A DNA stretch of 64,000 nucleotides, taken from positions 137,340 through 201,339 of the forward strand of contig JBEKXF010000001.1 in the NCBI GenBank assembly GCA_049512315.1. Reading direction: 5' to 3'. The first letter of the stretch is position 1. Each line of letters starts with the position of its first letter. The notes beneath the pieces were generated by a model. The model saw nothing but the letters and a program-made list of their open reading frames with translations. It had not been told where the DNA came from and searched no databases. The position numbers and the translations under genes are program-made. Positions 5,443-45,338 of the stretch are shown one piece after another. The stretch comes from Candidatus Aminicenantales bacterium. GTDB taxonomy: Bacteria; Acidobacteriota; Aminicenantia; Aminicenantales; Saccharicenantaceae.

Positions 5443-6857
5443 AACGAAGGAAAGCTGCAGTCTCGGGGATCGCGGACGCCCCACTGGATACTAGATCCCA
5501 GGAAAGGGCCCGCCTGGACAGGATCCCTTCGCTCGCCCCCGACCGTCTCCAAACGTACGATGCAAGCGCCGACAACGTCGGGAGGTTTCTCCGCTTGCTG
5601 GGCGAACGGATCACCCGGCCCCTGGCCGTGTCCCTGACCGCCTGTGTCCATTGCGGGCTGTGTGCCGACTCGTGCCACTATTTCCTGGCCAGGCCAGACG
5701 ATCCGACCATGACTCCTGTCTACAAGGCCGACCAGATCCGTCGCATCTTCAAAAGACATCTGGACTGGACGGGCCGGGTCGTCCCCTGGTGGGTCCACGC
5801 GGGCTCGCCTCGAAATGACGAAGATCTCAACCGTCTGAAGAATATCGTGTTCGGTACCTGCAGCGCCTGCCGCCGTTGCACACTCAACTGTCCCATGGGA
5901 GTGGATACGGGGCTCCTTGTCCGGTTCACGCGGGGACTCTTGACCGAGGTGGGGATCGTCCCGGAAGGCGTTTTCAACGTCAGCCGGGACCAATGGGAGA
6001 CGGGAAACCAGATGGCGGTCACGGAGGAAGAATATCTGGAGACCCTTCAGTGGATGGAGGACGAGCTCCGGACCGAGTTCGGGACGCCGGAGGTGGACAT
6101 CCCCGTCGACCGCCCGGACTGCGATGTCCTTTACACGATCAATCCCCGGGAGGTCAAGTTCGACCCGCGGTCCATCGCCAATGCGGCCAGGGTTTTCTTT
6201 GTCGCCGGGGAGAAATGGACCCTGCCGAAATGGGGCTGGGACCAGACGAACTTCGGCCTCTTTTCCGGGGACGACAAGCTCGGGGCCTATGTGGCCCGAA
6301 ATGTCTACGAAGCCGCGGAACGGCTCCGCGCCAAGAGAATCGTCATTTCCGAGTGCGGGCACGGCTACCGGTCTACCCGATGGGAGGGTTATAACTGGGC
6401 TGGATACGACCAGAAGGTCCCGACCGAATCGGTGGTCGTGACCCTCCAGCGATATCTCCGGGAAGGCCGCATCCGGGTCGATCCCGCCAGAAATCCCGAT
6501 CCCGTGACCTTTCATGATTCCTGCAACATCGCCCGCTCGGGAGATCTCGTCGAAGAGCCCCGATGGGTCCTCCGACGGGTTGTCACGGATTTCCGCGAGA
6601 TGCATCCCAATCGCCGGGAGAATTTATGCTGCACGGGCGGGGGAGGCCTTCTCTCCATGGCGGAATACAGGCCCCTCCGGCTTGAGGTCGCCAAGATCAA
6701 GGCCGAGCAGCTCAAGGCCACGGGAGCCAAGCTCGTCTGCACGATGTGTCACAACTGCATCGACGGGCTGACGGATGTCATCAAGCATTACAAGCTGGAG
6801 ATGAAAGTCGTCCAGGTCTTGGACCTGGTCTCGAACGCCCTCGTGATCCCGGAGTAG
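5439..6857 (+). CDS. Iron-sulfur CCG-domain protein of the DsrK/HdrD type
   Basis: Start overlaps the upstream stop (ATGA) and a GGAGGGGGA RBS precedes it. Two ferredoxin motifs (CVHCGLCADSC, CSACRRCTLNC) followed by Cys-rich CCG-type motifs (NLCCTGGGG). Confidence 0.75.
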   Translation: MKRRKAAVSGIADAPLDTRSQERARLDRIPSLAPDRLQTYDASADNVGRFLRLLGERITRPLAVSLTACVHCGLCADSCHYFLARPDDPTMTPVYKADQIRRIFKRHLDWTGRVVPWWVHAGSPRNDEDLNRLKNIVFGTCSACRRCTLNCPMGVDTGLLVRFTRGLLTEVGIVPEGVFNVSRDQWETGNQMAVTEEEYLETLQWMEDELRTEFGTPEVDIPVDRPDCDVLYTINPREVKFDPRSIANAARVFFVAGEKWTLPKWGWDQTNFGLFSGDDKLGAYVARNVYEAAERLRAKRIVISECGHGYRSTRWEGYNWAGYDQKVPTESVVVTLQRYLREGRIRVDPARNPDPVTFHDSCNIARSGDLVEEPRWVLRRVVTDFREMHPNRRENLCCTGGGGLLSMAEYRPLRLEVAKIKAEQLKATGAKLVCTMCHNCIDGLTDVIKHYKLEMKVVQVLDLVSNALVIPE

Positions 6858-6902
6858 AAATCGGGGCAACGGACGACGAGAAAATATTCGGAGGAGAGCG
6901 AT

Positions 6903-7223
6903 ATGCCGTTTATCGAAAAGGATGGCAAGAAGATCGAAGTCAACGAAGAAGGATTCCTGGCCCGCCCCGGCGAATGGGATGAGCAGGCGGCCGGCATCCT
7001 GGCGAAAATCGAGGAGGGCCTCGACGAAATGACTGCCGAACATTGGGCCGTCGTGAATTATATCCGGGGCTACTACCTTGAAAAAGGGCTGGCTCCCATG
7101 GTCCGCAAGATCTGCCAGACCACGGGCTTTCCGCTCAAGCACATCTATGAGCTGTTTCCGTCGGGGCCGGCCAAGGGGGCCTGCAAGGTGGCCGGGCTTC
7201 CTAAGCCCGACGGCTGCGTCTGA
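6903..7223 (+). CDS. dsrC: DsrC-family protein with both C-terminal cysteines (true DsrC type, not TusE)
   Basis: The C-terminus ACKVAGLPKPDGCV matches the DsrC swinging arm (CysA penultimate and CysB 10 residues upstream). GGAGGAG RBS upstream. Confidence 0.8.
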   Translation: MPFIEKDGKKIEVNEEGFLARPGEWDEQAAGILAKIEEGLDEMTAEHWAVVNYIRGYYLEKGLAPMVRKICQTTGFPLKHIYELFPSGPAKGACKVAGLPKPDGCV

Positions 7224-7232
7224 CGTTCAGGA

Positions 7233-8399
7233 TTATCCCTTTTTCTTTTTCAGCCCGGCGATTTCGCCGACGGCCCGGACGGCGGCCGCGATGTGCTCCT
7301 CGGTGTTGAAGGGGCCGATGCCGAACCTCACGGCGCCGTGGATCCCGGCGATGCCCAGCTGCTCGTGGACCAGGGGGGCGCAATGGAGCCCCGTCCGGGC
7401 GGCGATGTTGTAGTCGACGTCGAGCATCGTGCCCACGTCGGCGGCGACCATGCCGTCGACGTTGAAGGCCAGGACGCTGATGTGATCGGCGAGGTCTTCC
7501 AGGCAGTAGAGCGTCACCCCAGGGATCTCCCGCAGCCCGTCGCGGAGCTTGCGCGCAAGCCCCATTTCATGCTCTTGGAGGGTTTTCAGGCCCTTGGCCA
7601 GGATCCACTTCAAACCCGCGTTCAATCCGGCGATTCCCATAATATTCGGAGTCCCGTATTCGAGCCGGTACGGATATTCCTCGAGATGGGTCCGGACCGC
7701 GGACCGGACGCCCGTCCCGCCGGCCCTCGTGTGCCGGACCTCGATCCCCTCCCGGACGTAGAGACCGCCGATGCCGGTGGGGCCGAGAAGCGACTTGTGG
7801 CCGGTGAAAGCGACGACGTCCAGGAACTGGTCTTCCATGTCGATCGGGACCTTGCCCGCGGACTGCGACGCGTCAATGGCGAAGGGGATCCCGGCTTCCC
7901 GGCAGAGCCTTCCGATCTCACGGATCGGCTGGACGGTCCCGATGACATTCGAGGCATGGTTGACGATGACCAGGCGGGTCGTCGTCCGGAACCTTTTCCG
8001 GATCTCCGCGGGGTCGACGAAGCCCGCGCCGTCAAACGGAACGTGGTCGACCGCGACTCCCGCGAGTGACTGGTGATAGAGGGGACGGAGAACGGAATTG
8101 TGCTCGATCATCGTCGTGATGGCGTGTTCGCCGGGCTTGAGCATTCCGAAGATGATGAGGTTGAGGGCGTCCGTGGAGTTGTAGGAGAAGCAGAGCCGGT
8201 TGGGGTCCGTGCCGTTGAAGAACTGCGTCATCATCTTCCGCGTCGCCTCGACGACTTCGCCGGCCTCCAAACAGAGGTCATATCCGGATCGCCCCGGGTT
8301 GACTCCGAAATTCCTGTAGAAGTGGTCCATGAAGGTGTAGACCTCTTCGGGTTTCGGGAAGGACGTCGCCCCGTTATCCAGGAAGATCAGCTTGCTCAT
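7233..8399 (-). CDS. Class V aminotransferase-fold cysteine desulfurase (SufS/CsdA-like)
   Basis: PLP-lysine motif HKSLLGPTGIGGLYV and active-site Cys loop RTGLHCAP. Start chosen at MSKLIFLDNG with a GGAGG RBS 5 nt upstream. The longer ORF-track start lacks an RBS. Confidence 0.8.
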   Translation of the reverse strand: MSKLIFLDNGATSFPKPEEVYTFMDHFYRNFGVNPGRSGYDLCLEAGEVVEATRKMMTQFFNGTDPNRLCFSYNSTDALNLIIFGMLKPGEHAITTMIEHNSVLRPLYHQSLAGVAVDHVPFDGAGFVDPAEIRKRFRTTTRLVIVNHASNVIGTVQPIREIGRLCREAGIPFAIDASQSAGKVPIDMEDQFLDVVAFTGHKSLLGPTGIGGLYVREGIEVRHTRAGGTGVRSAVRTHLEEYPYRLEYGTPNIMGIAGLNAGLKWILAKGLKTLQEHEMGLARKLRDGLREIPGVTLYCLEDLADHISVLAFNVDGMVAADVGTMLDVDYNIAARTGLHCAPLVHEQLGIAGIHGAVRFGIGPFNTEEHIAAAVRAVGEIAGLKKKKG

Positions 8400-9540: not shown

Positions 9541-11016
<1,476 letters not shown>

Positions 11017-30760: not shown

Positions 30761-30845
30761 GGGCAGGTGGCGGAATTGGCAGACGCGCTAGGCTTAGGAC
30801 CTAGTTCCTGATGAAGGAGTGCGGGTTCGATTCCCGCCCTGCCTA
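30761..30845 (+). tRNA. tRNA-Leu (anticodon UAG)
   Basis: Manual fold. Acceptor stem GGGCAGG/CCTGCCT, D-arm, anticodon stem CTAGG/CCTAG with loop CTTAGGA, a long variable arm, T-arm GCGGG-TTCGATT-CCCGC and discriminator A. CCA is not encoded. Confidence 0.85.
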
Positions 30846-37417: not shown

Positions 37418-38182
37418 TTAGCTTTTTGCACGTTCCAATATCTCCTCGGCGACTTTTCGGTATTGCTCCGCCCCGACGGATTCGGGAGCATATGTGAAGA
37501 TCGATTCCTTGTAGGCCGGGCTCTCTTCGAGCTTGACGCTCTTCGAGATAAATGTCTTGAAGACCTTCTTTCCGAAGACGCGGCGGATCCTCTGCACGAC
37601 ATCCCGCCCGAGGTTCGTCCTCCTGTCGTGAAGAGTGACCAGGACCCCGATGATCTTCAGGCCGGGGTTGGCGATCCGGCGGACTTTCTCGATGGTCTCT
37701 AGGAGGTCATCCGTGCCCTCGAGAGCCAGATATGAGGATTGGATCGGGATCAGGATGGCCGACGCGGCGACGAGGGCGTTCATGGTGATCAAGCCCAGGG
37801 TCGGCGGGGTGTCGATGAAGATGAACTGGTATTTGTGCTTGATGGATTCGAGGGCGTCCTTCAGGCGGAAATGAGCGTCGATCTCGCCGAGAAGGGATGG
37901 CTCCAGCTTGGCCATGGAGATCTTGGCCATCGCCATGTCCAGGCCAGGAACCGTTGAACGGACGATAATGTTATCCATCTTCTCGTGTTTGTTCATTAGG
38001 ACATCGTAGAGCGATTTTTCATAGCTCGACGGGTCGGCCACGGTCGAGATCGTGCTGTGGGCCTGAGGGTCCATGTCTATGAGGAGGACCTTCTTCCCCA
38101 TCAAAGCCAGGGCAGATGAAATGTTGATGGATGTCGTGGTTTTCCCTACGCCGCCTTTCTGGTTCGTGATAGCGATGATCAA
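37418..38182 (-). CDS. parA: Chromosome partitioning ATPase ParA/Soj
   Basis: Deviant Walker A NQKGGVGKTT. Putative TTG start giving (M)IIAITNQKGG, preceded by GGAGGGAGAG at a 6-nt spacing. A GTG two codons upstream is an alternative. Confidence 0.8.
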   Translation of the reverse strand: MIIAITNQKGGVGKTTTSINISSALALMGKKVLLIDMDPQAHSTISTVADPSSYEKSLYDVLMNKHEKMDNIIVRSTVPGLDMAMAKISMAKLEPSLLGEIDAHFRLKDALESIKHKYQFIFIDTPPTLGLITMNALVAASAILIPIQSSYLALEGTDDLLETIEKVRRIANPGLKIIGVLVTLHDRRTNLGRDVVQRIRRVFGKKVFKTFISKSVKLEESPAYKESIFTYAPESVGAEQYRKVAEEILERAKS

Positions 38183-38222
38183 GAGCCTCTCTCCCTCCAC
38201 GACGGATTGAAACAAGATTACA

Positions 38223-38251
38223 TTTATAATAAAAGAGGACTTGGAATGCAA
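38223..38251 (-). promoter_or_regulatory. Candidate parAB promoter TTGCAT-N17-TATAAA (minus strand)
   Basis: Minus-strand -35 at 38251-38246 and -10 at 38228-38223, about 40 nt upstream of the parA TTG. Confidence 0.4.
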
Positions 38252-38275
38252 GCGAATTCTAGTTCTTGGACAGGA

Positions 38276-38297
38276 AAATGTCGGCACGCCGACATTT
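38276..38297. repeat. Perfect 10-2-10 inverted repeat AAATGTCGGC-AC-GCCGACATTT
   Basis: Exact reverse-complement arms. Lies about 25 nt upstream of the parAB -35 element. Confidence 0.6.
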
Positions 38298-38503
38298 ATT
38301 GTAAATATTTGAATATAAATGAGTAAAACAAATGTCCAGAATCCGGTCGGAAGTCTTGGTCCGGCCTTTTTGCGACCGGGCGAGGTCGCGGCTAAATAAC
38401 GGTAGAATTAGTGGTAGCTGACGGATTGGTTTCGTGGGCGGGGGTGAATTAGGAAAAGAAGAAAAACGTGGCTGAATAAGATCGGGCGTTTGGCGACGGT
38501 TGA

Positions 38504-38519
38504 TTTGCCGAAATCGGCA
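38504..38519. repeat. Perfect 7-2-7 inverted repeat TTGCCGA-AA-TCGGCAA
   Basis: Exact reverse-complement arms within the AT-rich non-coding region. Confidence 0.5.
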
Positions 38520-39070
38520 AAGGCTGTCCGGCGTCGGTCGATGGTAGGGCTTGCTTCTGTCATGTGAAGACGGGCCGAAAAAAAGGCGGCTCAAGACCCG
38601 TGATATGAATTCAAAGGTGCGAAATCTCGATCAAACTGAGCCTGCCCTCCCCTCTTTTTAAAGCTGGTGATCTTGCGTCGGCATAACCGGGTTGCCCATT
38701 GCCCGTTAGGCTTGATAGGCGGATAGACAATCGAAAAGGGTAAGCCGGGGAGACGGCTCGATGACAATTCTATAAGGAATAGCGATTGCGTAAAATTAGA
38801 TTTCGAATGGAGGTGATGAATTAATAATCTCTTATCTAGCTGATAATAAATAATATACTAAGATGTCACACCGGCTGGACAAGAGAGTCAGGAGAGATAG
38901 CTCGGGAAGCTCAATGCGTCGTTCCGGAGGGAGGTTTGGGCGGACGTCAAGCACGGGTTGGCGTCCATGATGCCGCTCGGCGCCAAGGGCTGTCGCGTTT
39001 TTGCGGAGCTCGGAAAATATTCCTCACGCTTTATCCCGAAAATCCCGTACAATGAGGCCTGGCCGAGAGC

Positions 39071-40480
39071 ATGAGCCCGGAAACATCCGAACCAAAATTT
39101 CTCAGGCGGCTGAACCTCATGGACACGGCCTTCCTCGTCGTCGGTGCCGTCATCGGGTCGGGGATCTTCATGACGCCGGGCCTGATCGCCGCCGGCGTCC
39201 CCTCCCCCGGCCTCCTGCTCGTCGTTTGGCTGGCCGGAGGCCTGGTCACTCTCTGCGGGGCACTCTCCTTCGCCGAGCTCGGGGCGATGTACCCGCAGGC
39301 CGGGGGCCAGTACGTCTATCTCCGCGAAGCGTACGGACCTGGCGCCGCCTTCCTTTTCGGCTGGGGCTTTTTCGGGTTCATCATGTGTGGCGGCCTGGCG
39401 GCCCTGGCCGTCGGCTTCGCCGAATTCTTCGGCTCCTTCGTTCCCCGCCTGTCCACGGGGGTCGAGATCGCCCATTTTTCGGCCTTAGGTTTTTCCTATT
39501 CGCTATCGGCCGGGCAGCTGGTCGCCGCCGCCTCTATCGTCCTCTTGACCGTCATCAACTCGTTCGGGATCCGGGCGGGCGTCGCCGTCCAGAACCTCCT
39601 GACCGTCTTCCGGATCGGGGCGGTCGGGGCGCTCGTTGTCCTGGGGCTCGTTTTTGGGACCAAGTCGGGCGGGACGAACTTCCACCCGCTCTTCCCCGGA
39701 GGGTTGGAATTCCCCGGCCTCCTGAAACCGCTCGGCCTGGCCCTGGTCGCGGTTTTCTGGACCTATGACGGCTGGTATTCCGTCAACTGCACAGCCGAAG
39801 AGATCCGGGACCCGGAGAAAAATATTCCCCGGGGGCTGGCCCTCGGCGTCGCCGGGGTCACGGTCTTATATGTCTCGGTCAATCTCGTCTACCTTCTGGC
39901 CCTTCCGCTGGAGAAGCTGAAGGGGGTCGTGCGGGTCGGGGAACTCGTCACGACGGCCCTTTTCGGCGGCGGCGCGGGAGCGGCGATCGCGGCCGTGATC
40001 ATGGTCTCGGTCTTCGGCTGCCTGAACGCCAACCTGCTTTTCGGGCCGCGGGTCTATTACGCCATGGCCAAGGACGGGAGCTTTTTCCGGTCCATGGCCC
40101 GCCTCAGCCCGCGCACCAGAGTCCCGACGCGCGCCCTCTGGGGCCAGGCCGCCTGGTCCGCCGTGCTCTGCCTGTCGGGGACCTACCAGGCCCTGTACGA
40201 GTACATGGTCTTCGCCCTGCTCGTCTTCTTCGCGGCGACGGGCCTGGCCGTCATTGTCCTCCGCCGCCGGCGACCCGAAGCCAGCCGCCCCTACCGGACG
40301 TGGGGATATCCTATTATTCCTATGATATTTGTAGTAATTTGCCTGGCGATCTTCATCAACATTCTCCTTGCCCAACCCCTGAAGTCCGCAGCGGGCCTGG
40401 CCCTGCTCGGGGCCGGCCTGCCGGCCTTTCTGATCTGGCGGAGGCGCCGTCCGGCGGATGGCGGGAACCTCAAAAAATGA
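39071..40480 (+). CDS. APC-superfamily amino acid/amine permease
   Basis: 469 aa with 12 predicted TM helices. The N-terminal FLVVGAVIGSGIFMTPG motif is typical of APC transporters. Confidence 0.8.
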   Translation: MSPETSEPKFLRRLNLMDTAFLVVGAVIGSGIFMTPGLIAAGVPSPGLLLVVWLAGGLVTLCGALSFAELGAMYPQAGGQYVYLREAYGPGAAFLFGWGFFGFIMCGGLAALAVGFAEFFGSFVPRLSTGVEIAHFSALGFSYSLSAGQLVAAASIVLLTVINSFGIRAGVAVQNLLTVFRIGAVGALVVLGLVFGTKSGGTNFHPLFPGGLEFPGLLKPLGLALVAVFWTYDGWYSVNCTAEEIRDPEKNIPRGLALGVAGVTVLYVSVNLVYLLALPLEKLKGVVRVGELVTTALFGGGAGAAIAAVIMVSVFGCLNANLLFGPRVYYAMAKDGSFFRSMARLSPRTRVPTRALWGQAAWSAVLCLSGTYQALYEYMVFALLVFFAATGLAVIVLRRRRPEASRPYRTWGYPIIPMIFVVICLAIFINILLAQPLKSAAGLALLGAGLPAFLIWRRRRPADGGNLKK

Positions 40481-40536
40481 TAGGCAAGGCCGGAGATTTG
40501 GTTTAAAATGAGGCTTCTCGTGGCTGGCTGCGGAAG

Positions 40537-42315
40537 ATGACGGACGTGACGTATTCCCTCGAGATCCTCCCTGACGGGACCAAGGTCCGGGTCCGGGCCG
40601 GGGAGCTCCTGGCCGACGCCCTGACGAGGGTCGGCATCCCTCTCAGCCTCTATTGCCACAAGCGGGGCGTCTGCGGGAAATGCGCCGTCCGGATCCGGGC
40701 GGGGCTCCTTCCCCTTCTCGAGGCCCCGGAGAAGGCCGTCCTCGAAAAACGAGGCCTCAGCCCCGACCACCGGCTCGCCTGCCGGTTCGCCGTCCGGGGC
40801 GATATGGCCGTGGAAATCCTCCCGGAATCGCGCCTGGGCAAGGTGGCCGTCCTCGAGACCGGCCTTTCCGCCCCCGTCACCCTCGACCCCCAAATCAAGA
40901 AGCTCGCCGTGACCCTGGGAAAGCCGCCTCTATCCGCCCCGGCGGCCGTGACGGAGAGCCTGGAATCCCTCCTCCGGACGCCCGGCCTGGGCTTCCCTCT
41001 TCCAGCCCTGAGGGGCCTCAAGGGTCTGGACTCTGGGTCCCCCCGGACGGTCACGGCCGTCCTCTACGGCGAGCGGGAGGTTGTTGATGTCGAGCCCGGC
41101 GATACCTCCGGGCGGGCCTTCGGCCTGGCGGTCGACATCGGCACGAGCACGGTCGTCGTCGAGCTCGTCGACCTGGTCACGGGAAAATGCGCCGGCCGGG
41201 CTTCGGCCCTCAACAGCCAGGCCTCCTACGGCGCCGACGTCGTCTCGAGGATCGCCTATGCTTTCCAGGAACCGGACAATCTCAAGCGCCTGAAGAAGTC
41301 CATTGCCCATCTCCTGAACACCCTGGCCGGCGAATTGTTGGAAAAAAGCGCCGTCCCGAGGGAGCGCGTCTACGAGGCTGTCGTCGCCGGAAACACGGCC
41401 ATGAACCACTTCCTTTGCGGCGTGAGCGTGGATCCGCTGGCCTTGTCCCCCTTCCACGCGGTCTTCGCGGCCCTTCCACCCTTCCCCGCCGCCGAGATCG
41501 GCCTCGAGCTCAACCCGGCGGCCCGGGTTTACATCGTCCCCAACATCAAGAGTTTCGTCGGCGGGGACATCACGGCCGGGCTGGCCGCCTGTGCCCTGGC
41601 CGAGAAGCCGGGCCACGCGCTCTTCATCGACATCGGGACCAACGGCGAGATCGTCCTCAAGAAAGGCCAGCAGTTCATGGCCACCTCAACGGCCGCCGGG
41701 CCGGCCTTCGAGGGGATGAGCATCAGCTGCGGCATGCTGGCCGTCGAGGGCGCCGTCCACCGGGCCGAATGGCGGGACGGCTTCCGTCTCCAGACGATGG
41801 GCGGAGGGACGCCACGCGGCCTCTGCGGTACGGGGCTTATCGACGTCCTGGCTGTTGGCCTGGCCCGCGGCCTCATCGGCCGCGACGGCAAGATCGCGGG
41901 CCCGGAGAAAAAGCTCCGGCTGGGCGACAGGCTCAGCCTGACCCAGAACGATATCCGGGAGGTCCAACTGGCCGCGGCTGCGATCAAGACCGGCATCCGG
42001 CTGATGCTCCGGGAATTCCAGGTGCCGCTGAAGGACCTCGACGCCGTGTACATCGCCGGCGCCTTCGGCAACTCGCTCGATATCCGTAACGCCCAGGCCT
42101 TGGGCCTTCTGCCCGGGATCCCGGATCAAAAGATCGCCTTCGTCGGGAACTCGTCGTTGGCCGGGGCGCGCAAGCTCCTTCTCTCGGCCCCCGCGCGGGC
42201 GGCCGCCGAGTCCCTGGCGAAGAGCATCGTGCATGTCTCGCTGGCCACGAGGCCGGATTTCCAGGATGAATTCGTCCGCTGCCTGGAATTCGGGCCCCTG
42301 CCCGGAGGTGGATGA
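40537..42315 (+). CDS. RACo-type reductive activase of corrinoid proteins (N-terminal 2Fe-2S ferredoxin plus ASKHA ATPase domain)
   Basis: Plant-type ferredoxin cysteines (CHKRGVCGKCAV...LAC). ASKHA/actin-fold phosphate motifs (GLAVDIGTSTV, LFIDIGTNGEIV, GAFGN). Confidence 0.75.
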   Translation: MTDVTYSLEILPDGTKVRVRAGELLADALTRVGIPLSLYCHKRGVCGKCAVRIRAGLLPLLEAPEKAVLEKRGLSPDHRLACRFAVRGDMAVEILPESRLGKVAVLETGLSAPVTLDPQIKKLAVTLGKPPLSAPAAVTESLESLLRTPGLGFPLPALRGLKGLDSGSPRTVTAVLYGEREVVDVEPGDTSGRAFGLAVDIGTSTVVVELVDLVTGKCAGRASALNSQASYGADVVSRIAYAFQEPDNLKRLKKSIAHLLNTLAGELLEKSAVPRERVYEAVVAGNTAMNHFLCGVSVDPLALSPFHAVFAALPPFPAAEIGLELNPAARVYIVPNIKSFVGGDITAGLAACALAEKPGHALFIDIGTNGEIVLKKGQQFMATSTAAGPAFEGMSISCGMLAVEGAVHRAEWRDGFRLQTMGGGTPRGLCGTGLIDVLAVGLARGLIGRDGKIAGPEKKLRLGDRLSLTQNDIREVQLAAAAIKTGIRLMLREFQVPLKDLDAVYIAGAFGNSLDIRNAQALGLLPGIPDQKIAFVGNSSLAGARKLLLSAPARAAAESLAKSIVHVSLATRPDFQDEFVRCLEFGPLPGGG

Positions 42316-43205
42316 TGAGCCGTTCGATATTGGACTTGGTCCGTCAAAGGACCGTTCTCCTGGACGGGGCCATGGGCACGGAGCTCATGGCCCGCGGGCT
42401 GCCCCAAGGGACATGCCCCGAATCATGGAACGTCGAGAAGCCCGCGGTCGTCGAGGAGATCCACCGGAGATATTTCGAGGCCGGCTCCGATGTGGTCTCC
42501 ACGAACAGCTTTGGCGGCAGCCGGATCAAGCTTGCCGGCCACGGCTTGGAAGGCCGGACCGCCGAACTAAATCTTGCGGCGGCGCGTCTGGCAAGGGTCG
42601 TCACGCCCGCGGGCAGATATGTGGCCGGGAGCATGGGCCCGACCGGAAAATTCCTCAAGCCCCAAGGCGAATTCGCGGAAGGGGAATTCGAGGCCGTTTT
42701 CGCCGAACAGGCCCGGGCTCTCGCCGACGGCGGGGCGGACGTGCTTCTCATCGAAACCCAGTACGACCTCCGGGAAGCCCTCTGCGCCCTCCGCGGCGCC
42801 CGGCGGAGCTCTCCCCTGTCGGTCTTCGTCACCATGACCTTCAACGCCGTCCCGCGGGGGTATTTCACGCTCATGGGCGATACCGTCGCCCGGTGCATGC
42901 AGGAACTCGAAAAGGAAGGCGCCCGGGCCGTGGGAGCCAACTGCACTCTCAACAGCGAGCAGATGACGGGTCTCGTCAAAGCCATGCGCCAGGAGACACG
43001 CTTGCCTCTGATCGCCCAGGCCAACGCGGGCCAGCCCGTCCTCGGGAGCGACGGCCGCGTGTCCTATTCTCAGGGGCTCGAAGACTACGTCAGGTTCGTT
43101 CCAGACCTCATCCGGGCCGGGGCCAATATTGTCGGCGGCTGCTGCGGCACGAGCCCCGCCTACATCAGGGCCATGGCCGAATCGATCTCAAGGAGGACCG
43201 CATGA
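42312..43205 (+). CDS. Homocysteine-binding-domain S-methyltransferase (MetH Hcy-domain-like, zinc thiol methyltransferase)
   Basis: LLDGAMGTEL, ETNSFGG, LIETQYDL, and the zinc ligands NCTLN plus GGCCGTSPAYI match the MetH N-terminal homocysteine domain. No pterin-binding domain. Confidence 0.75.
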   Translation: MMSRSILDLVRQRTVLLDGAMGTELMARGLPQGTCPESWNVEKPAVVEEIHRRYFEAGSDVVSTNSFGGSRIKLAGHGLEGRTAELNLAAARLARVVTPAGRYVAGSMGPTGKFLKPQGEFAEGEFEAVFAEQARALADGGADVLLIETQYDLREALCALRGARRSSPLSVFVTMTFNAVPRGYFTLMGDTVARCMQELEKEGARAVGANCTLNSEQMTGLVKAMRQETRLPLIAQANAGQPVLGSDGRVSYSQGLEDYVRFVPDLIRAGANIVGGCCGTSPAYIRAMAESISRRTA

Positions 43206-43855
43206 AAAAGGAAGATCTCTATCTGCAGATGAAGAAGGCGATCGTCGAGGGCGACGGCGCCGGGGCCGGGCGGCTGGCCGGCGAGGCCGTCAAGGCGGGC
43301 CTGGACCTTCTCGAAGTCATTGAAAAAGGCTATGTTCCAGGGATCCAGAAGGTCGGCGAGCTGTGGGAGCAGGGAGAGTATTTCCTGCCCGAGCTCATCT
43401 CCAGCGCCGAGGCCATGAAGGCGGCCATGGCCGTCCTCAATCCCGAGCTCCAGCGCTCCCGTCTTCAGGCCAGGACGGCCGGAAAAGTGGTCATCGGGAC
43501 GATCGAGGGGGACATCCACGACATCGGCAAGAACCTCGTGTCCTCCATGCTCCAGGCCGGCGGCTTCGAGGTCTTCGACCTCGGCGCCGACGTCAAGCTC
43601 GAAAGGTTCATTGAAAAGGCCGAGTCCGTCGGCGCGGATTTCATCTGCCTGTCCGCCCTGCTGACGACGACGATGGTCAACCAGAAGCGGTTGGTCGCGC
43701 TCCTCAGGGAGAGAAACCTCAGGGACAGATACAAGGTCCTCGTGGGAGGGGCACCGGCTAGCCAAAGGTGGGCCGACGAGGCGGGTGCCGACGGCTATGC
43801 TGAGAACGCGGTGGCCGCCGTCAAGCTGGCGAAGAGCCTGGCCCCGAAGAGATGA
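43202..43855 (+). CDS. Cobalamin-binding corrinoid protein (B12-binding cap plus Rossmann domain)
   Basis: ATGA overlap with the upstream stop. DxHxxG motif (GDIHDIGKN) and SxL (SALLTTT) of B12-binding domains. 217 aa. Only the C-terminal part of the long ORF-track entry 42233..43855 is real. Confidence 0.8.
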   Translation: MKKEDLYLQMKKAIVEGDGAGAGRLAGEAVKAGLDLLEVIEKGYVPGIQKVGELWEQGEYFLPELISSAEAMKAAMAVLNPELQRSRLQARTAGKVVIGTIEGDIHDIGKNLVSSMLQAGGFEVFDLGADVKLERFIEKAESVGADFICLSALLTTTMVNQKRLVALLRERNLRDRYKVLVGGAPASQRWADEAGADGYAENAVAAVKLAKSLAPKR

Positions 43856-43868
43856 CGGGAGACAGACC

Positions 43869-45338
43869 ATGATCGAGACAAAAAGACCGAAGATCGAGCT
43901 GCTGAGCCCCGAGTTAGTCGAAAAAATCGTCGACGAGGGTCTTGTGCTCCTCGAGAAGCAAGGGGTCTTCGTCGAGAACCAGGAGGCTTTGAAGCTCCTG
44001 GCCGCGGCCGGCGCCCTTGTCGACACGGGCACTGAGAGGGCCCGGCTCGACAGAAAACTCGTCCTGGACTGCCTGTCGTCGACACCGGCCACGATCACGA
44101 TGTACGACCGGGGCGGCGAAAAGTCTTACCTCGTCGGAGGCGACGAGATCCATTTCGACCCGGGCTCGGCGGCCGTCTCCCTCCTCGACCACGAGACCCA
44201 GGAGGAGAGGAAGGCCGTGACGCGGGATCTCGTGGCGTTCTGCCGGCTCGTGGAGACGCTCGAGCACATCCATTTCCAGAGCACGGGACTGATCTCCTCG
44301 GATGTCCCGGCCGCGATCGCCGACTGTTACCGGCTGTACCTGGGACTTCTCCTCTCGTCCAAGCCCATCGTCACGGGGACGTTCCGGGTCGAGAGCTTCA
44401 AGCCCATGAAGGATCTTCTCGTGGGCGTCCGGGGCGGCGAGGCCGAGCTCGCCCGCAAGCCCCTGGCGATCTTCGACGCCTGCCCCTCCCCTCCCCTCAA
44501 ATGGAGCAACCTGACGACCCAGAGTCTGATCGACTCGGCCCGGGCCGGCATCCCCTCGGAGCTCATCTCGATGGGCATGACGGGCGCGACGTCCCTCGCC
44601 ACCATCTCGGGGACCCTGGTCCAGCACGTGGCCGAGAACCTCTGCGGCCTCGTCATCTGCCAGCTGGCCCGGCGTGGCGCCCCGGTCATCTTCGGGGGAT
44701 CGCCCTCGAGCTTCGACATGAGGAAGGGGACGACGCCGATGGGGGCCATCGAGACCATGATGATCGACTCGGCCTATGCCCAGATCGGGAAAAACCTGAG
44801 GCTCCCGACCCATGCGTATATGGCCCTGAGCGACTCCAAGGTCAACGACGCCCAGAGCGGGATCGAGACGGCCCTGGGAGCGGCCCTAGCGGCACTCTCC
44901 GGGATCAACGTCATCTCGGGCCCGGGCATGCTGGACTTCGAGAGCTGCCAGAGCCTCGAGAAGCTGGCCATCGACAACGAGATCTGCGGTATGGTCTACC
45001 GGCTGGTCGCTGGCATCGCCCAGCGGGAAGACCCGATCGCCCTCGACAAATTCGAGGGCTTCAAGGCCGATTTCCAGTTCCTGTCCCATCCCCACACGCG
45101 CCAGTGGTACAGAAAAGAACACACGATGCCGGCACTCATGGACAGGGACCCTTACGAGGCTTGGGTCATGGCCGGCCGCAAGACCGTCCTTGACAAGGCC
45201 CACAAGGACGTGACGGACAGGATCAGGAAATATACCCTCCCTCCGCTTCCCGATGGTTTACGGAAAGAGCTGGAAAGGATCATGACCGGCTACGCCCGGT
45301 CCCAGGGACTTGGAACCCTGCCGAAGACGGGCCTCTAA
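43869..45338 (+). CDS. MttB-superfamily (non-pyrrolysine) substrate:corrinoid methyltransferase (MtgB/MtpB/MtcB-like)
   Basis: GGGAG RBS. 489 aa TIM-barrel MttB-family protein with no in-frame amber codon. Start at MIETKRPKIELLS. Confidence 0.75.
   Translation: MIETKRPKIELLSPELVEKIVDEGLVLLEKQGVFVENQEALKLLAAAGALVDTGTERARLDRKLVLDCLSSTPATITMYDRGGEKSYLVGGDEIHFDPGSAAVSLLDHETQEERKAVTRDLVAFCRLVETLEHIHFQSTGLISSDVPAAIADCYRLYLGLLLSSKPIVTGTFRVESFKPMKDLLVGVRGGEAELARKPLAIFDACPSPPLKWSNLTTQSLIDSARAGIPSELISMGMTGATSLATISGTLVQHVAENLCGLVICQLARRGAPVIFGGSPSSFDMRKGTTPMGAIETMMIDSAYAQIGKNLRLPTHAYMALSDSKVNDAQSGIETALGAALAALSGINVISGPGMLDFESCQSLEKLAIDNEICGMVYRLVAGIAQREDPIALDKFEGFKADFQFLSHPHTRQWYRKEHTMPALMDRDPYEAWVMAGRKTVLDKAHKDVTDRIRKYTLPPLPDGLRKELERIMTGYARSQGLGTLPKTGL

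Follow-up and report, generated by a model that had tools for sequence, protein, structure and literature searches.

A MetH-type homocysteine module encoded beside an MttB-family methyltransferase in Aminicenantales: a candidate corrinoid-dependent route from methylated amines to methionine

The 64-kb stretch of DNA that was analysed (hereafter the window), which belongs to contig JBEKXF010000001.1 of a Candidatus Aminicenantales bacterium, contains five closely spaced genes on the plus strand at positions 39071-45338. They encode, in this order, a permease, a reductive activase of the RACo type, a homocysteine module that we abbreviate as SMT, a corrinoid (B12) protein and a methyltransferase of the MttB superfamily (Table 1). 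The order is written below as permease-RACo-SMT-B12-MttB, and loci in other genomes are labelled with L-numbers. The genes are tightly packed: the RACo stop and the SMT start overlap by 4 nt (ATGATGA at 42312), as do the SMT stop and the start of the corrinoid-protein gene (ATGA at 43202), GGAGG-like sequences resembling Shine-Dalgarno sites lie 5' of both the SMT start and the B12 start, and a gap of 13 nt separates the corrinoid-protein stop from the MttB start. The overlap at 43202 bears out the translational coupling between SMT and a stand-alone B12 protein that had been proposed in a first-pass annotation, made from the letters alone. Homologues of SMT begin at the second ATG, at 42315, which gives a protein of 296 aa.

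Table 1. Genes and sequence features of the five-gene operon (positions in the window)
Feature	Coordinates	Strand	Basis
APC-family amino-acid permease, 469 aa, operon gene 1	39071..40480	+	Pfam AA_permease_2, E 4.8e-63
RACo/RamA-type ATP-dependent corrinoid reductive activase, 592 aa	40537..42315	+	Fer2, RACo_linker, Raco_middle, RACo_C_ter (E 1e-68)
SMT, stand-alone MetH-type zinc-dependent homocysteine module, 297 aa, proposed MT2 (methyl-corrinoid:homocysteine methyltransferase)	42312..43205	+	PF02574, E 1.8e-69
Cys210 codon, first zinc ligand, NCTLN motif	42942..42944	+	aligns to GINCSLG of T. maritima MetH
Cys276 and Cys277 codons, zinc ligands, GGCCGT motif	43140..43145	+	identical GGCCGT in T. 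maritima MetH
Corrinoid (B12) carrier, 217 aa, methylamine-methyltransferase cognate type	43202..43855	+	PF02607, PF02310, TIGR02370
DxHxxG motif (DIHDIG, residues 104-109)	43511..43528	+	sequence
Non-pyrrolysine MttB-superfamily methyltransferase, 489 aa, proposed MT1 (methylated amine:corrinoid)	43869..45338	+	PF06253, E 3.3e-86
CTG codon, Leu320, aligned with pyrrolysine-334 of Methanosarcina barkeri MttB	44826..44828	+	alignment to 7xcl

The first-pass annotation had also described SMT as carrying the homocysteine-binding fold of the methionine synthase MetH, with intact zinc ligands, and not a pterin-binding fold. The profile search agrees with this description on every point. SMT matches S-methyl_trans (PF02574) with 235.2 bits (cutoff 22; E 1.8e-69), its residues 15-291 covering profile positions 1-282 of 283, and gives no match to Pterin_bind (PF00809) in the same Pfam search. 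Among solved structures it comes nearest to the homocysteine module of Thermotoga maritima MetH (1q7m; phmmer E 6.7e-45, residues 4-293 against 5-288), and the matches to Escherichia coli MmuM (E 1.2e-21) and to betaine-homocysteine methyltransferase (BHMT; E 2e-19) are much weaker. Both zinc-ligand motifs, NCTLN (residues 209-213) and GGCCGT (residues 274-279), are intact, and the three zinc cysteines C210, C276 and C277 belong to a set of 55 positions whose conservation across 66 homologues is 97% or higher. The same degree of conservation is seen for D17-G18, T63-N64, E147-T148 and Q235-x-N237-A238-G239, and the DG, TN, ET and NAG motifs are common to the T. maritima module. Thus, the predicted MetH-type homocysteine fold of SMT is unambiguous.

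SMT stays below the NCBIfam cutoffs for full-length MetH (TIGR02082/PRK09490; 177 bits vs 1010.85), for the MtgE or 'bmt' type of homocysteine module known from Proteobacteria (PRK07534; 218 bits vs 338) and for MmuM (PRK09485; 122.1 bits vs 215), the MetH, YitJ-N and 'bmt' models giving between 177 and 250 bits. In tblastn searches it reached 105-137 bits against rhizobial bmt genes, compared with 152-172 bits against clostridial MetH. By these scores SMT is placed nearer to genuine MetH modules than to the MtgE type; it belongs to the same superfamily as MtgE and has the same proposed role, yet by sequence it is not an orthologue of it.

The corrinoid protein encoded downstream of SMT consists of a helical cap (B12-binding_2, PF02607; E 8.7e-23) followed by a Rossmann domain (B12-binding, PF02310; E 1.4e-28). 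The DxHxxG motif that it contains is the one which, in the B12 domains of MetH and of MtxC-type carriers, gives the cobalt its lower axial histidine ligand. The protein passes the methylamine-system model TIGR02370, which describes the MtmC/MtbC/MttC/MtgC type (236.7 bits vs a cutoff of 215.3), stays below the cutoffs of the specific MtgC models (241.7 vs 310 and 177.4 vs 370 bits) and scores only 146.9 bits on the MetH model (cutoff 1010.85); it is 36% identical to residues 650-896 of E. coli MetH. We therefore class it, on profile scores, as a carrier of the methylamine-system type and not as a MetH-derived one. This has consequences for the resemblance to a split MetH that had been pointed out before: it holds insofar as SMT is the homocysteine module of MetH and is coupled to a B12 protein, but it does not extend to the corrinoid protein itself, which is of the TIGR02370 type, nor to the activase, which is of the RACo/RamA type and not the S-adenosylmethionine (SAM)-binding domain of MetH.

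In the case of the activase, an N-terminal 2Fe-2S ferredoxin domain (Cys40/46/49/82) is followed by an ASKHA domain, and all four Pfam domains score above their cutoffs. The protein reaches neither the AcsV equivalog cutoff (383.7 bits vs 800) nor that of RamA (162 bits vs 500; NCBIfam), and hence represents a separate subgroup. A phmmer search with the E. coli MetH activation domain as query returned no SAM-binding domain of this kind, either from the window or from the related loci. The permease, which lies upstream of RACo-SMT in loci of the window type, reaches no NCBIfam equivalog; by Pfam and NCBIfam it is an amino-acid-type APC transporter and not a BCCT or ABC betaine transporter, and it shares 23% identity with E. 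coli MmuP. It is presumed to import the methyl donor.

As for the donor itself, the MttB homologue matches PF06253 over residues 2-470 with 289.8 bits (cutoff 25), remains under the cutoff of the pyrrolysine-MttB equivalog TIGR02369 (371.7 bits vs 525), and is encoded by an open reading frame without internal stop that has leucine at the position of pyrrolysine-334, as do 27 of 34 orthologues from Aminicenantes. It is equidistant from pyrrolysine-MttB (193.6 bits) and from MtgB of Desulfitobacterium hafniense (190.7 bits). The residues with which MtgB binds glycine betaine are Y97, R312, H348 and F356 (Picking et al. 2026, PMC13080624), and these align to S100, H315, S350 and E358 in the MttB homologue. 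All four thus differ, and on this ground an assignment of the enzyme as MtgB was rejected. The replacing residues are themselves kept in 27-31 of the 34 Aminicenantes orthologues, so that the donor would be a conserved substrate. The 'quaternary amine' of the first-pass annotation must consequently be regarded as a guess: the donor is not demonstrably a quaternary amine and, judging from these replacements, is probably not glycine betaine.

Some loci encode additional MttB-like proteins. A second, very divergent paralogue (25-30% identical) lies right after or near the first one at L028:3529-4941, L039:13209-14654, L057:13207-14637 and in L082, and further divergent paralogues are present on the minus strand at L012:15261-16631 and L026:16330-17754. 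Such paralogues are a hint that the same carrier may be fed by several methyl donors. In three loci the MttB gene adjoins a gene for a protein of about 200 aa without Pfam or NCBIfam match, 'c52' (L040:5428-6030, L020 and L079:6006-6617).

The fold, metal site, conserved motifs, operon structure and synteny observed here, read in the light of the chemistry of MttB-family MT1 enzymes, MtxC carriers, the MetH homocysteine module and RACo/RamA activases, lead us to consider it rather probable that the five genes encode a complete corrinoid-dependent methyl-transfer chain, from a methylated amine to homocysteine, giving methionine. The APC permease would bring in the methylated amine, and the MttB-family MT1, if it acts as other members of its family do, would use one of the methyl groups of this amine to methylate the 217-aa corrinoid protein in its Co(I) state. 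In SMT, as MT2, the zinc held by Cys210, Cys276 and Cys277 would bind homocysteine as a thiolate, and this thiolate would attack methyl-Co(III) to yield methionine and Co(I). A corrinoid that has slipped to Co(II) would be reduced again by RACo by means of its 2Fe-2S cluster and ATP, as is expected from its family membership. The net reaction would be R-N-CH3 + homocysteine -> R-NH + methionine, and in our view the formation of methionine from a methylated amine and homocysteine is the most plausible reading of the operon.

The idea that methyl groups of methylated amines reach methionine in this way is not new. It was published as a genomic hypothesis by Williams et al. (2022, Environ Microbiol, PMC9324843), who described in metagenome-assembled genomes of Ca. 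Electryoneota, and in 'diverse bacteria', a cluster in which genes for a corrinoid protein and an activation protein stand together with those for a homocysteine S-methyltransferase and an MtgB/MttB homologue of the non-pyrrolysine kind, and who proposed corrinoid-dependent methionine synthesis from an unidentified methyl donor. The Electryoneota genomes also encode a full-length MetH. All four functions of that cluster are encoded contiguously and on the same strand at 40537-45338 of the window, and the three core modules are united in one cluster in both cases, the MttB homologue in each falling into an uncharacterised clade that is neither MtgB nor pyrrolysine-MttB. The two clusters differ in their activation protein, which is a SAM-binding MetH activation domain in Electryoneota and a RACo/RamA-type ATP-dependent activase here, and in the APC permease, which belongs to the operon here.

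The closest systems studied by genetics are MtgBCDE of Ruegeria pomeroyi and Sinorhizobium meliloti and the three-part split MetH of Phaeobacter inhibens, which is reactivated by a RamA-like protein (Price et al. 2018, PMC5764234). Knock-outs in Ruegeria have shown that neither the demethylation of glycine betaine by MtgB nor methionine synthesis with MtgE can do without the corrinoid protein MtgC and the pterin protein MtgD, one corrinoid protein being common to MtgB and the homocysteine module MtgE (Mausz et al. 2025, PNAS, PMC12478193). According to the same study, the S. meliloti 'Bhmt' is an MtgE-type homocysteine module, and mtgE is mostly unlinked from mtgBC while the pterin module travels with mtgB/mtgC. 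A loose co-location was confirmed for S. meliloti, in which mtgE lies about 6 kb from mtgBC. These systems resemble the operon in that a corrinoid protein (PF02310) encoded on its own serves both a methyltransferase of PF06253 and a PF02574 module, and in the reactivation by a RamA-like protein (DUF4445, which is RACo_C_ter). On the other hand, MtgD is part of MtgBCDE and genetically required there, whereas the operon is without a pterin module; here it is the homocysteine module, and not the pterin module, that travels with MttB and the carrier; RACo lies inside the cluster; there is no DUF1638; and the hosts are not aerobic Proteobacteria but belong to a lineage of Acidobacteriota that often has carbon monoxide dehydrogenase/acetyl-CoA synthase (CODH/ACS).

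The chain also shares its overall design, that is, an MttB-family MT1, an MtxC-type corrinoid protein, an MT2 and a RamA/RACo-type activase, with MtgB-MtgC-MtgA of D. hafniense and MtpB/MtcB/MtyB-MtqC-MtqA of Eubacterium limosum. In those systems MT2 is a pterin-type methylcorrinoid:tetrahydrofolate (THF) methyltransferase, whereas here it has the MetH homocysteine fold; moreover, the betaine-binding residues of the D. hafniense MtgB are not conserved. Compared with MetH (E. coli, T. maritima and the clostridial forms of about 790 aa), the homocysteine module is homologous over its full length and the B12 domain is homologous as well, but here the modules are separate proteins, the pterin and SAM activation modules are absent, and the B12 protein is closer to the methylamine-system type. 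BHMT and MmuM, finally, have the PF02574 fold and zinc-homocysteine thiolate acceptor chemistry in common with SMT, and the net reaction proposed here equals that of BHMT; they differ in taking the methyl group directly from betaine, S-methylmethionine or SAM, without B12.

A scan of species-representative genomes yielded 80 loci with an SMT orthologue (48-84% identical), each from a different assembly and nearly all from Aminicenantes. Counts of neighbouring genes were obtained from tblastn matches and a self-trained codon-usage gene caller, and are approximate: a RACo gene lies directly upstream of SMT in 44 of the 69 loci with enough flank, B12 and MttB lie directly downstream in 30 of 62, and the complete RACo-SMT-B12-MttB order is present in half of the loci in which both flanks could be read (27/54). 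In some loci, SMT follows serine-pathway genes and a NifS-like gene.

A different arrangement is found in 15 of 58 loci. There, SMT stands at the end of a Wood-Ljungdahl cluster that runs c16, CODH, ACS, CooC, AcsD, AcsC, RACo (AcsV-type, 693 bits), SMT, and B12-MttB sometimes lies 3' of the SMT of such an acs cluster. The acs-linked loci are L012, L019, L024, L026, L027, L030, L033, L035, L036, L039, L046, L048, L055-L057 and L059; the genes of the cluster share one strand (L030:56-10885 is an example), CODH being the Prismane and ACS the CdhC match. No Pterin_bind (AcsE) gene was present within the 10 kb shown around acs-linked SMT. This arrangement suggests the methylated corrinoid iron-sulfur protein (CFeSP) as donor in methionine synthesis. 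In the literature searched we found no description of a homocysteine module wired to the CODH/ACS CFeSP cluster. Such wiring suggests a folate-independent route from methyl-corrinoid pools to methionine. The conserved protein of 346 aa that heads the acs cluster, 'c16' (L024:860-1900, plus strand; L029:18678-19715; L046:1-1020), has no Pfam match at 1e-3 and only a faint match to MtbA/URO-D (E 0.009). Three motifs that are invariant in c16, namely FIDEPILS, GIHCCGN and TPSCGTG, are similar to the zinc site in MetE and core-MetE-type methyltransferases, and c16 is possibly a methyltransferase of the acs cluster that has gone unrecognised.

Among cultured organisms of other phyla, the best match comes from Gemmatirosa kalamazoonensis KBS708, whose plasmid 1 (NZ_CP007129.1) encodes an SMT that is 41% identical. 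At this locus (L091:4731-10918), SMT (10001-10918) comes after genes for a URO-D-family methyltransferase, a corrinoid protein, RACo and a 403-aa open reading frame without Pfam match, in this order. G. kalamazoonensis is a cultured aerobe that pairs the SMT acceptor module with a donor of the URO-D family, and it is a possible experimental handle. Other plasmid-borne candidates, the clostridial 'homocysteine S-methyltransferase family proteins' of R. albus, P. acidaminophilum and C. difficile, were rejected, as they are ordinary MetH proteins of about 790 aa with a separate gene for the activation domain, and are not linked to MttB.

The common denominator of the neighbours of SMT is corrinoid-handling machinery with interchangeable donor modules. 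In Aminicenantes, SMT is a single-copy mobile 'acceptor' module whose partner varies with the genome: the MttB/corrinoid pair, the CODH/ACS CFeSP, or a pterin methyltransferase of the stand-alone kind. Given this interchangeable wiring, the operon is best understood as one of the branches that feed a modular methionine synthase and not as a catabolic route to methyl-THF.

Several observations weigh against the proposed chain from a methylated amine to homocysteine. First, the residues with which MtgB binds betaine are replaced in the MttB homologue. Second, SMT is without an adjacent corrinoid gene in 15 of 54 loci, and in seven loci (L013, L015, L034, L042, L047, L049 and L077) a permease gene and SMT occur alone, with their position beside ParAB kept, an arrangement that resembles mmuP-mmuM. 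Third, SMT is in pairwise alignment about equally similar to E. coli MmuM (30.7%, 95.5 bits) and to the homocysteine module of E. coli MetH (30.7%, 118 bits). Fourth, no SAM or cobalamin riboswitch that would link the operon with the regulation of methionine was found upstream: the Rfam search of the whole window at gathering score returned only a tRNA, and that of positions 38150-39150 at E<=1 returned nothing. In addition, the host organism is uncultivated. Finally, pterin methyltransferases of the stand-alone kind are common in the phylum, and the host genome may well encode one at another place, so that methyl groups from MttB could also reach THF.

This last point bears on the strongest of the alternatives, namely that the operon is part of a dual-input split methionine synthase such as MtgBCDE, in which the carrier and SMT are the ordinary folate-dependent methionine synthase of the cell, served by an unlinked stand-alone pterin methyltransferase, and MttB is an accessory most of whose methyl groups pass through this carrier to THF, for catabolism or the Wood-Ljungdahl pathway, and not to homocysteine. 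The search for a folate module covered the annotation of the window genes, made through precomputed Pfam matches on a matching public contig, and phmmer comparisons of M. thermoacetica AcsE (identical to PDB 2e7f) and of the pterin and activation domains of E. coli MetH with all six-frame open reading frames of the window and of 87 loci; tblastn with the E. coli MetH domains likewise brought up no such gene in the window. None of the genes called in the 64-kb window has a Pfam match to Pterin_bind, MetE, MTHFR or Met_synt_B12, and the AcsE and MetH-pterin queries gave no match in the window at E<=0.1, the clostridial MetH controls being matched at 1e-40 or better. The operon is thus without a methyl-THF domain, as the first-pass annotation had it, and no pterin gene was found in any other locus of the window type.

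Stand-alone Pterin_bind homologues are nevertheless numerous elsewhere: 543 were found, several of them from named Aminicenantes. In two loci, an SMT orthologue lies directly 5' of such a gene (L044:9983-11724 and L094:9113-10789). The encoded protein has 262-268 aa and scores 136.8 bits against M. thermoacetica AcsE, the pair follows genes for SerC-like, SerA-like and NifS-like proteins, and no B12 protein is encoded within 10 kb of it. The presence of SMT beside a Pterin_bind gene in some genomes identifies SMT as the homocysteine half of a modular (split) methionine synthase. On the complete chromosome CP070825.1 the two are unlinked, the pterin gene lying at a locus of the serine-pathway type (~1.00 Mb) and SMT in the acs cluster (~2.74 Mb). 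An unlinked folate module in the host genome is therefore quite possible, and the earlier proposal that MttB replaces the methyl-THF domain stands only insofar as the operon and the window have no pterin-type methyltransferase; MttB may add to the folate input rather than replace it. The genetics and the model of Mausz et al. (2025) for Ruegeria likewise favour two inputs. Against this, the operon is self-sufficient as written, with MT1, carrier, MT2, activase and transporter, and in Proteobacteria it is the pterin module that accompanies mtgB/mtgC and not the homocysteine module, the reverse of what is seen here. Weighing both sides, we regard the dual-input arrangement as unlikely, though as an alternative to be taken seriously.

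A broader proposal is that SMT is a general 'methyl-corrinoid sink', which takes methyl groups from any corrinoid protein that a genome happens to provide, be it the MttB-charged carrier or, in acs-linked genomes, the CFeSP, so that methionine is made without methyl-THF. We put this forward as a doubtful, speculative extension of the amine-to-methionine chain. If it were true, genomes of the window type without a pterin methyltransferase would have to rely on the uptake of a methylated amine for all their methionine synthesis, and genomes of the acs type would pass the methyl group of acetyl-CoA or CO2 fixation straight from the CFeSP to homocysteine.

It is also conceivable that SMT methylates a thiol or selenol other than homocysteine, such as sulfide, methanethiol, a mercapto-acid or a cofactor thiol, an option that the first-pass annotation had raised as well. 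The PF02574 family does contain enzymes with changed acceptors. Moreover, glycine betaine is reported to serve as methyl source for non-native thiols in engineered mixtures of Mtg and Mta proteins (PMC13618148). We consider such an acceptor highly improbable, given that the motifs of SMT outside the zinc site that align with the MetH homocysteine module (D17-G18, T63-N64, E147-T148 and N237-A238-G239) are so strongly conserved, and that the orthologue in L094 stands beside a pterin methyltransferase and serine-pathway genes, a context like that of a methionine synthase. Least credible of all is a corrinoid-independent enzyme of the MmuM/YbgG kind, which would methylate homocysteine directly from S-methylmethionine, or from a comparable sulfonium compound, brought in by the permease, with nothing but shared regulation behind its linkage to B12, MttB and RACo: the seven permease-SMT loci recall E. 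coli mmuP-mmuM and SMT is 30.7% identical to MmuM, but the analogy is weak both on scores, since the MmuM model and the phmmer comparison rank MmuM well behind MetH and the permease is just 23% identical to MmuP, and on context, since SMT overlaps genes for corrinoid handling by 4 nt on both sides and RACo is so often its direct upstream neighbour.

The genes flanking the operon are of a housekeeping kind: those for Lon, Rho, ParB and ParA precede it, and on the other side follow a convergent gene for a beta-CASP nuclease and one for an M1 peptidase. The GC content of the operon resembles that of the remainder of the window, so that there is no obvious island, and two public metagenome contigs carry an identical locus. 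The homologues agree with an origin from Candidatus Aminicenantes (Acidobacteriota). Between the divergent parA and the permease gene lies an unusually long AT-rich intergenic stretch (38201-39070; about 870 nt), around which the GC content falls to 0.55-0.57. It contains several promoter-like hexamer pairs on the minus strand, has no Rfam match, and may be a regulatory or origin-proximal region beside parAB. The single tRNA gene of the window (30761-30845; Rfam RF00005, 58 bits) is located upstream of the genes for trigger factor, Lon and Rho. Elsewhere in the window, at 5595-7223, a gene of the DsrC family (6903-7223) adjoins genes for a CCG/4Fe-4S (HdrD-like) protein and an uncharacterised 234-aa protein, and a class-V aminotransferase/cysteine desulfurase-like gene (7233-8399) lies beside this group. 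The DsrC/HdrD-like group is indicative of redox chemistry of the sulfur-relay or heterodisulfide type, in what is putatively a fermenter.

To our knowledge, a substrate has been assigned to only a minority of the very large non-pyrrolysine MttB superfamily, and for every biochemically characterised member of the MttB superfamily that we know of, the final methyl acceptor is THF if the host is a bacterium and coenzyme M if it is an archaeon. If the chain proposed here is correct, homocysteine would be a third outlet for MttB methyl groups, and the operon would encode a B12-dependent counterpart of BHMT. The compactness of the operon, with its four soluble proteins, together with the existence of a cultured relative in G. 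kalamazoonensis, makes the genome-based hypothesis of 2022 directly testable by reconstitution. For the organisms themselves, the chain would mean that methionine and SAM can be regenerated independently of the folate methyl branch in bacteria that are widespread in sediment and peat, and it would add both a demand for cobalamin and a sink for methylated amines to the anoxic cycling of carbon and nitrogen.

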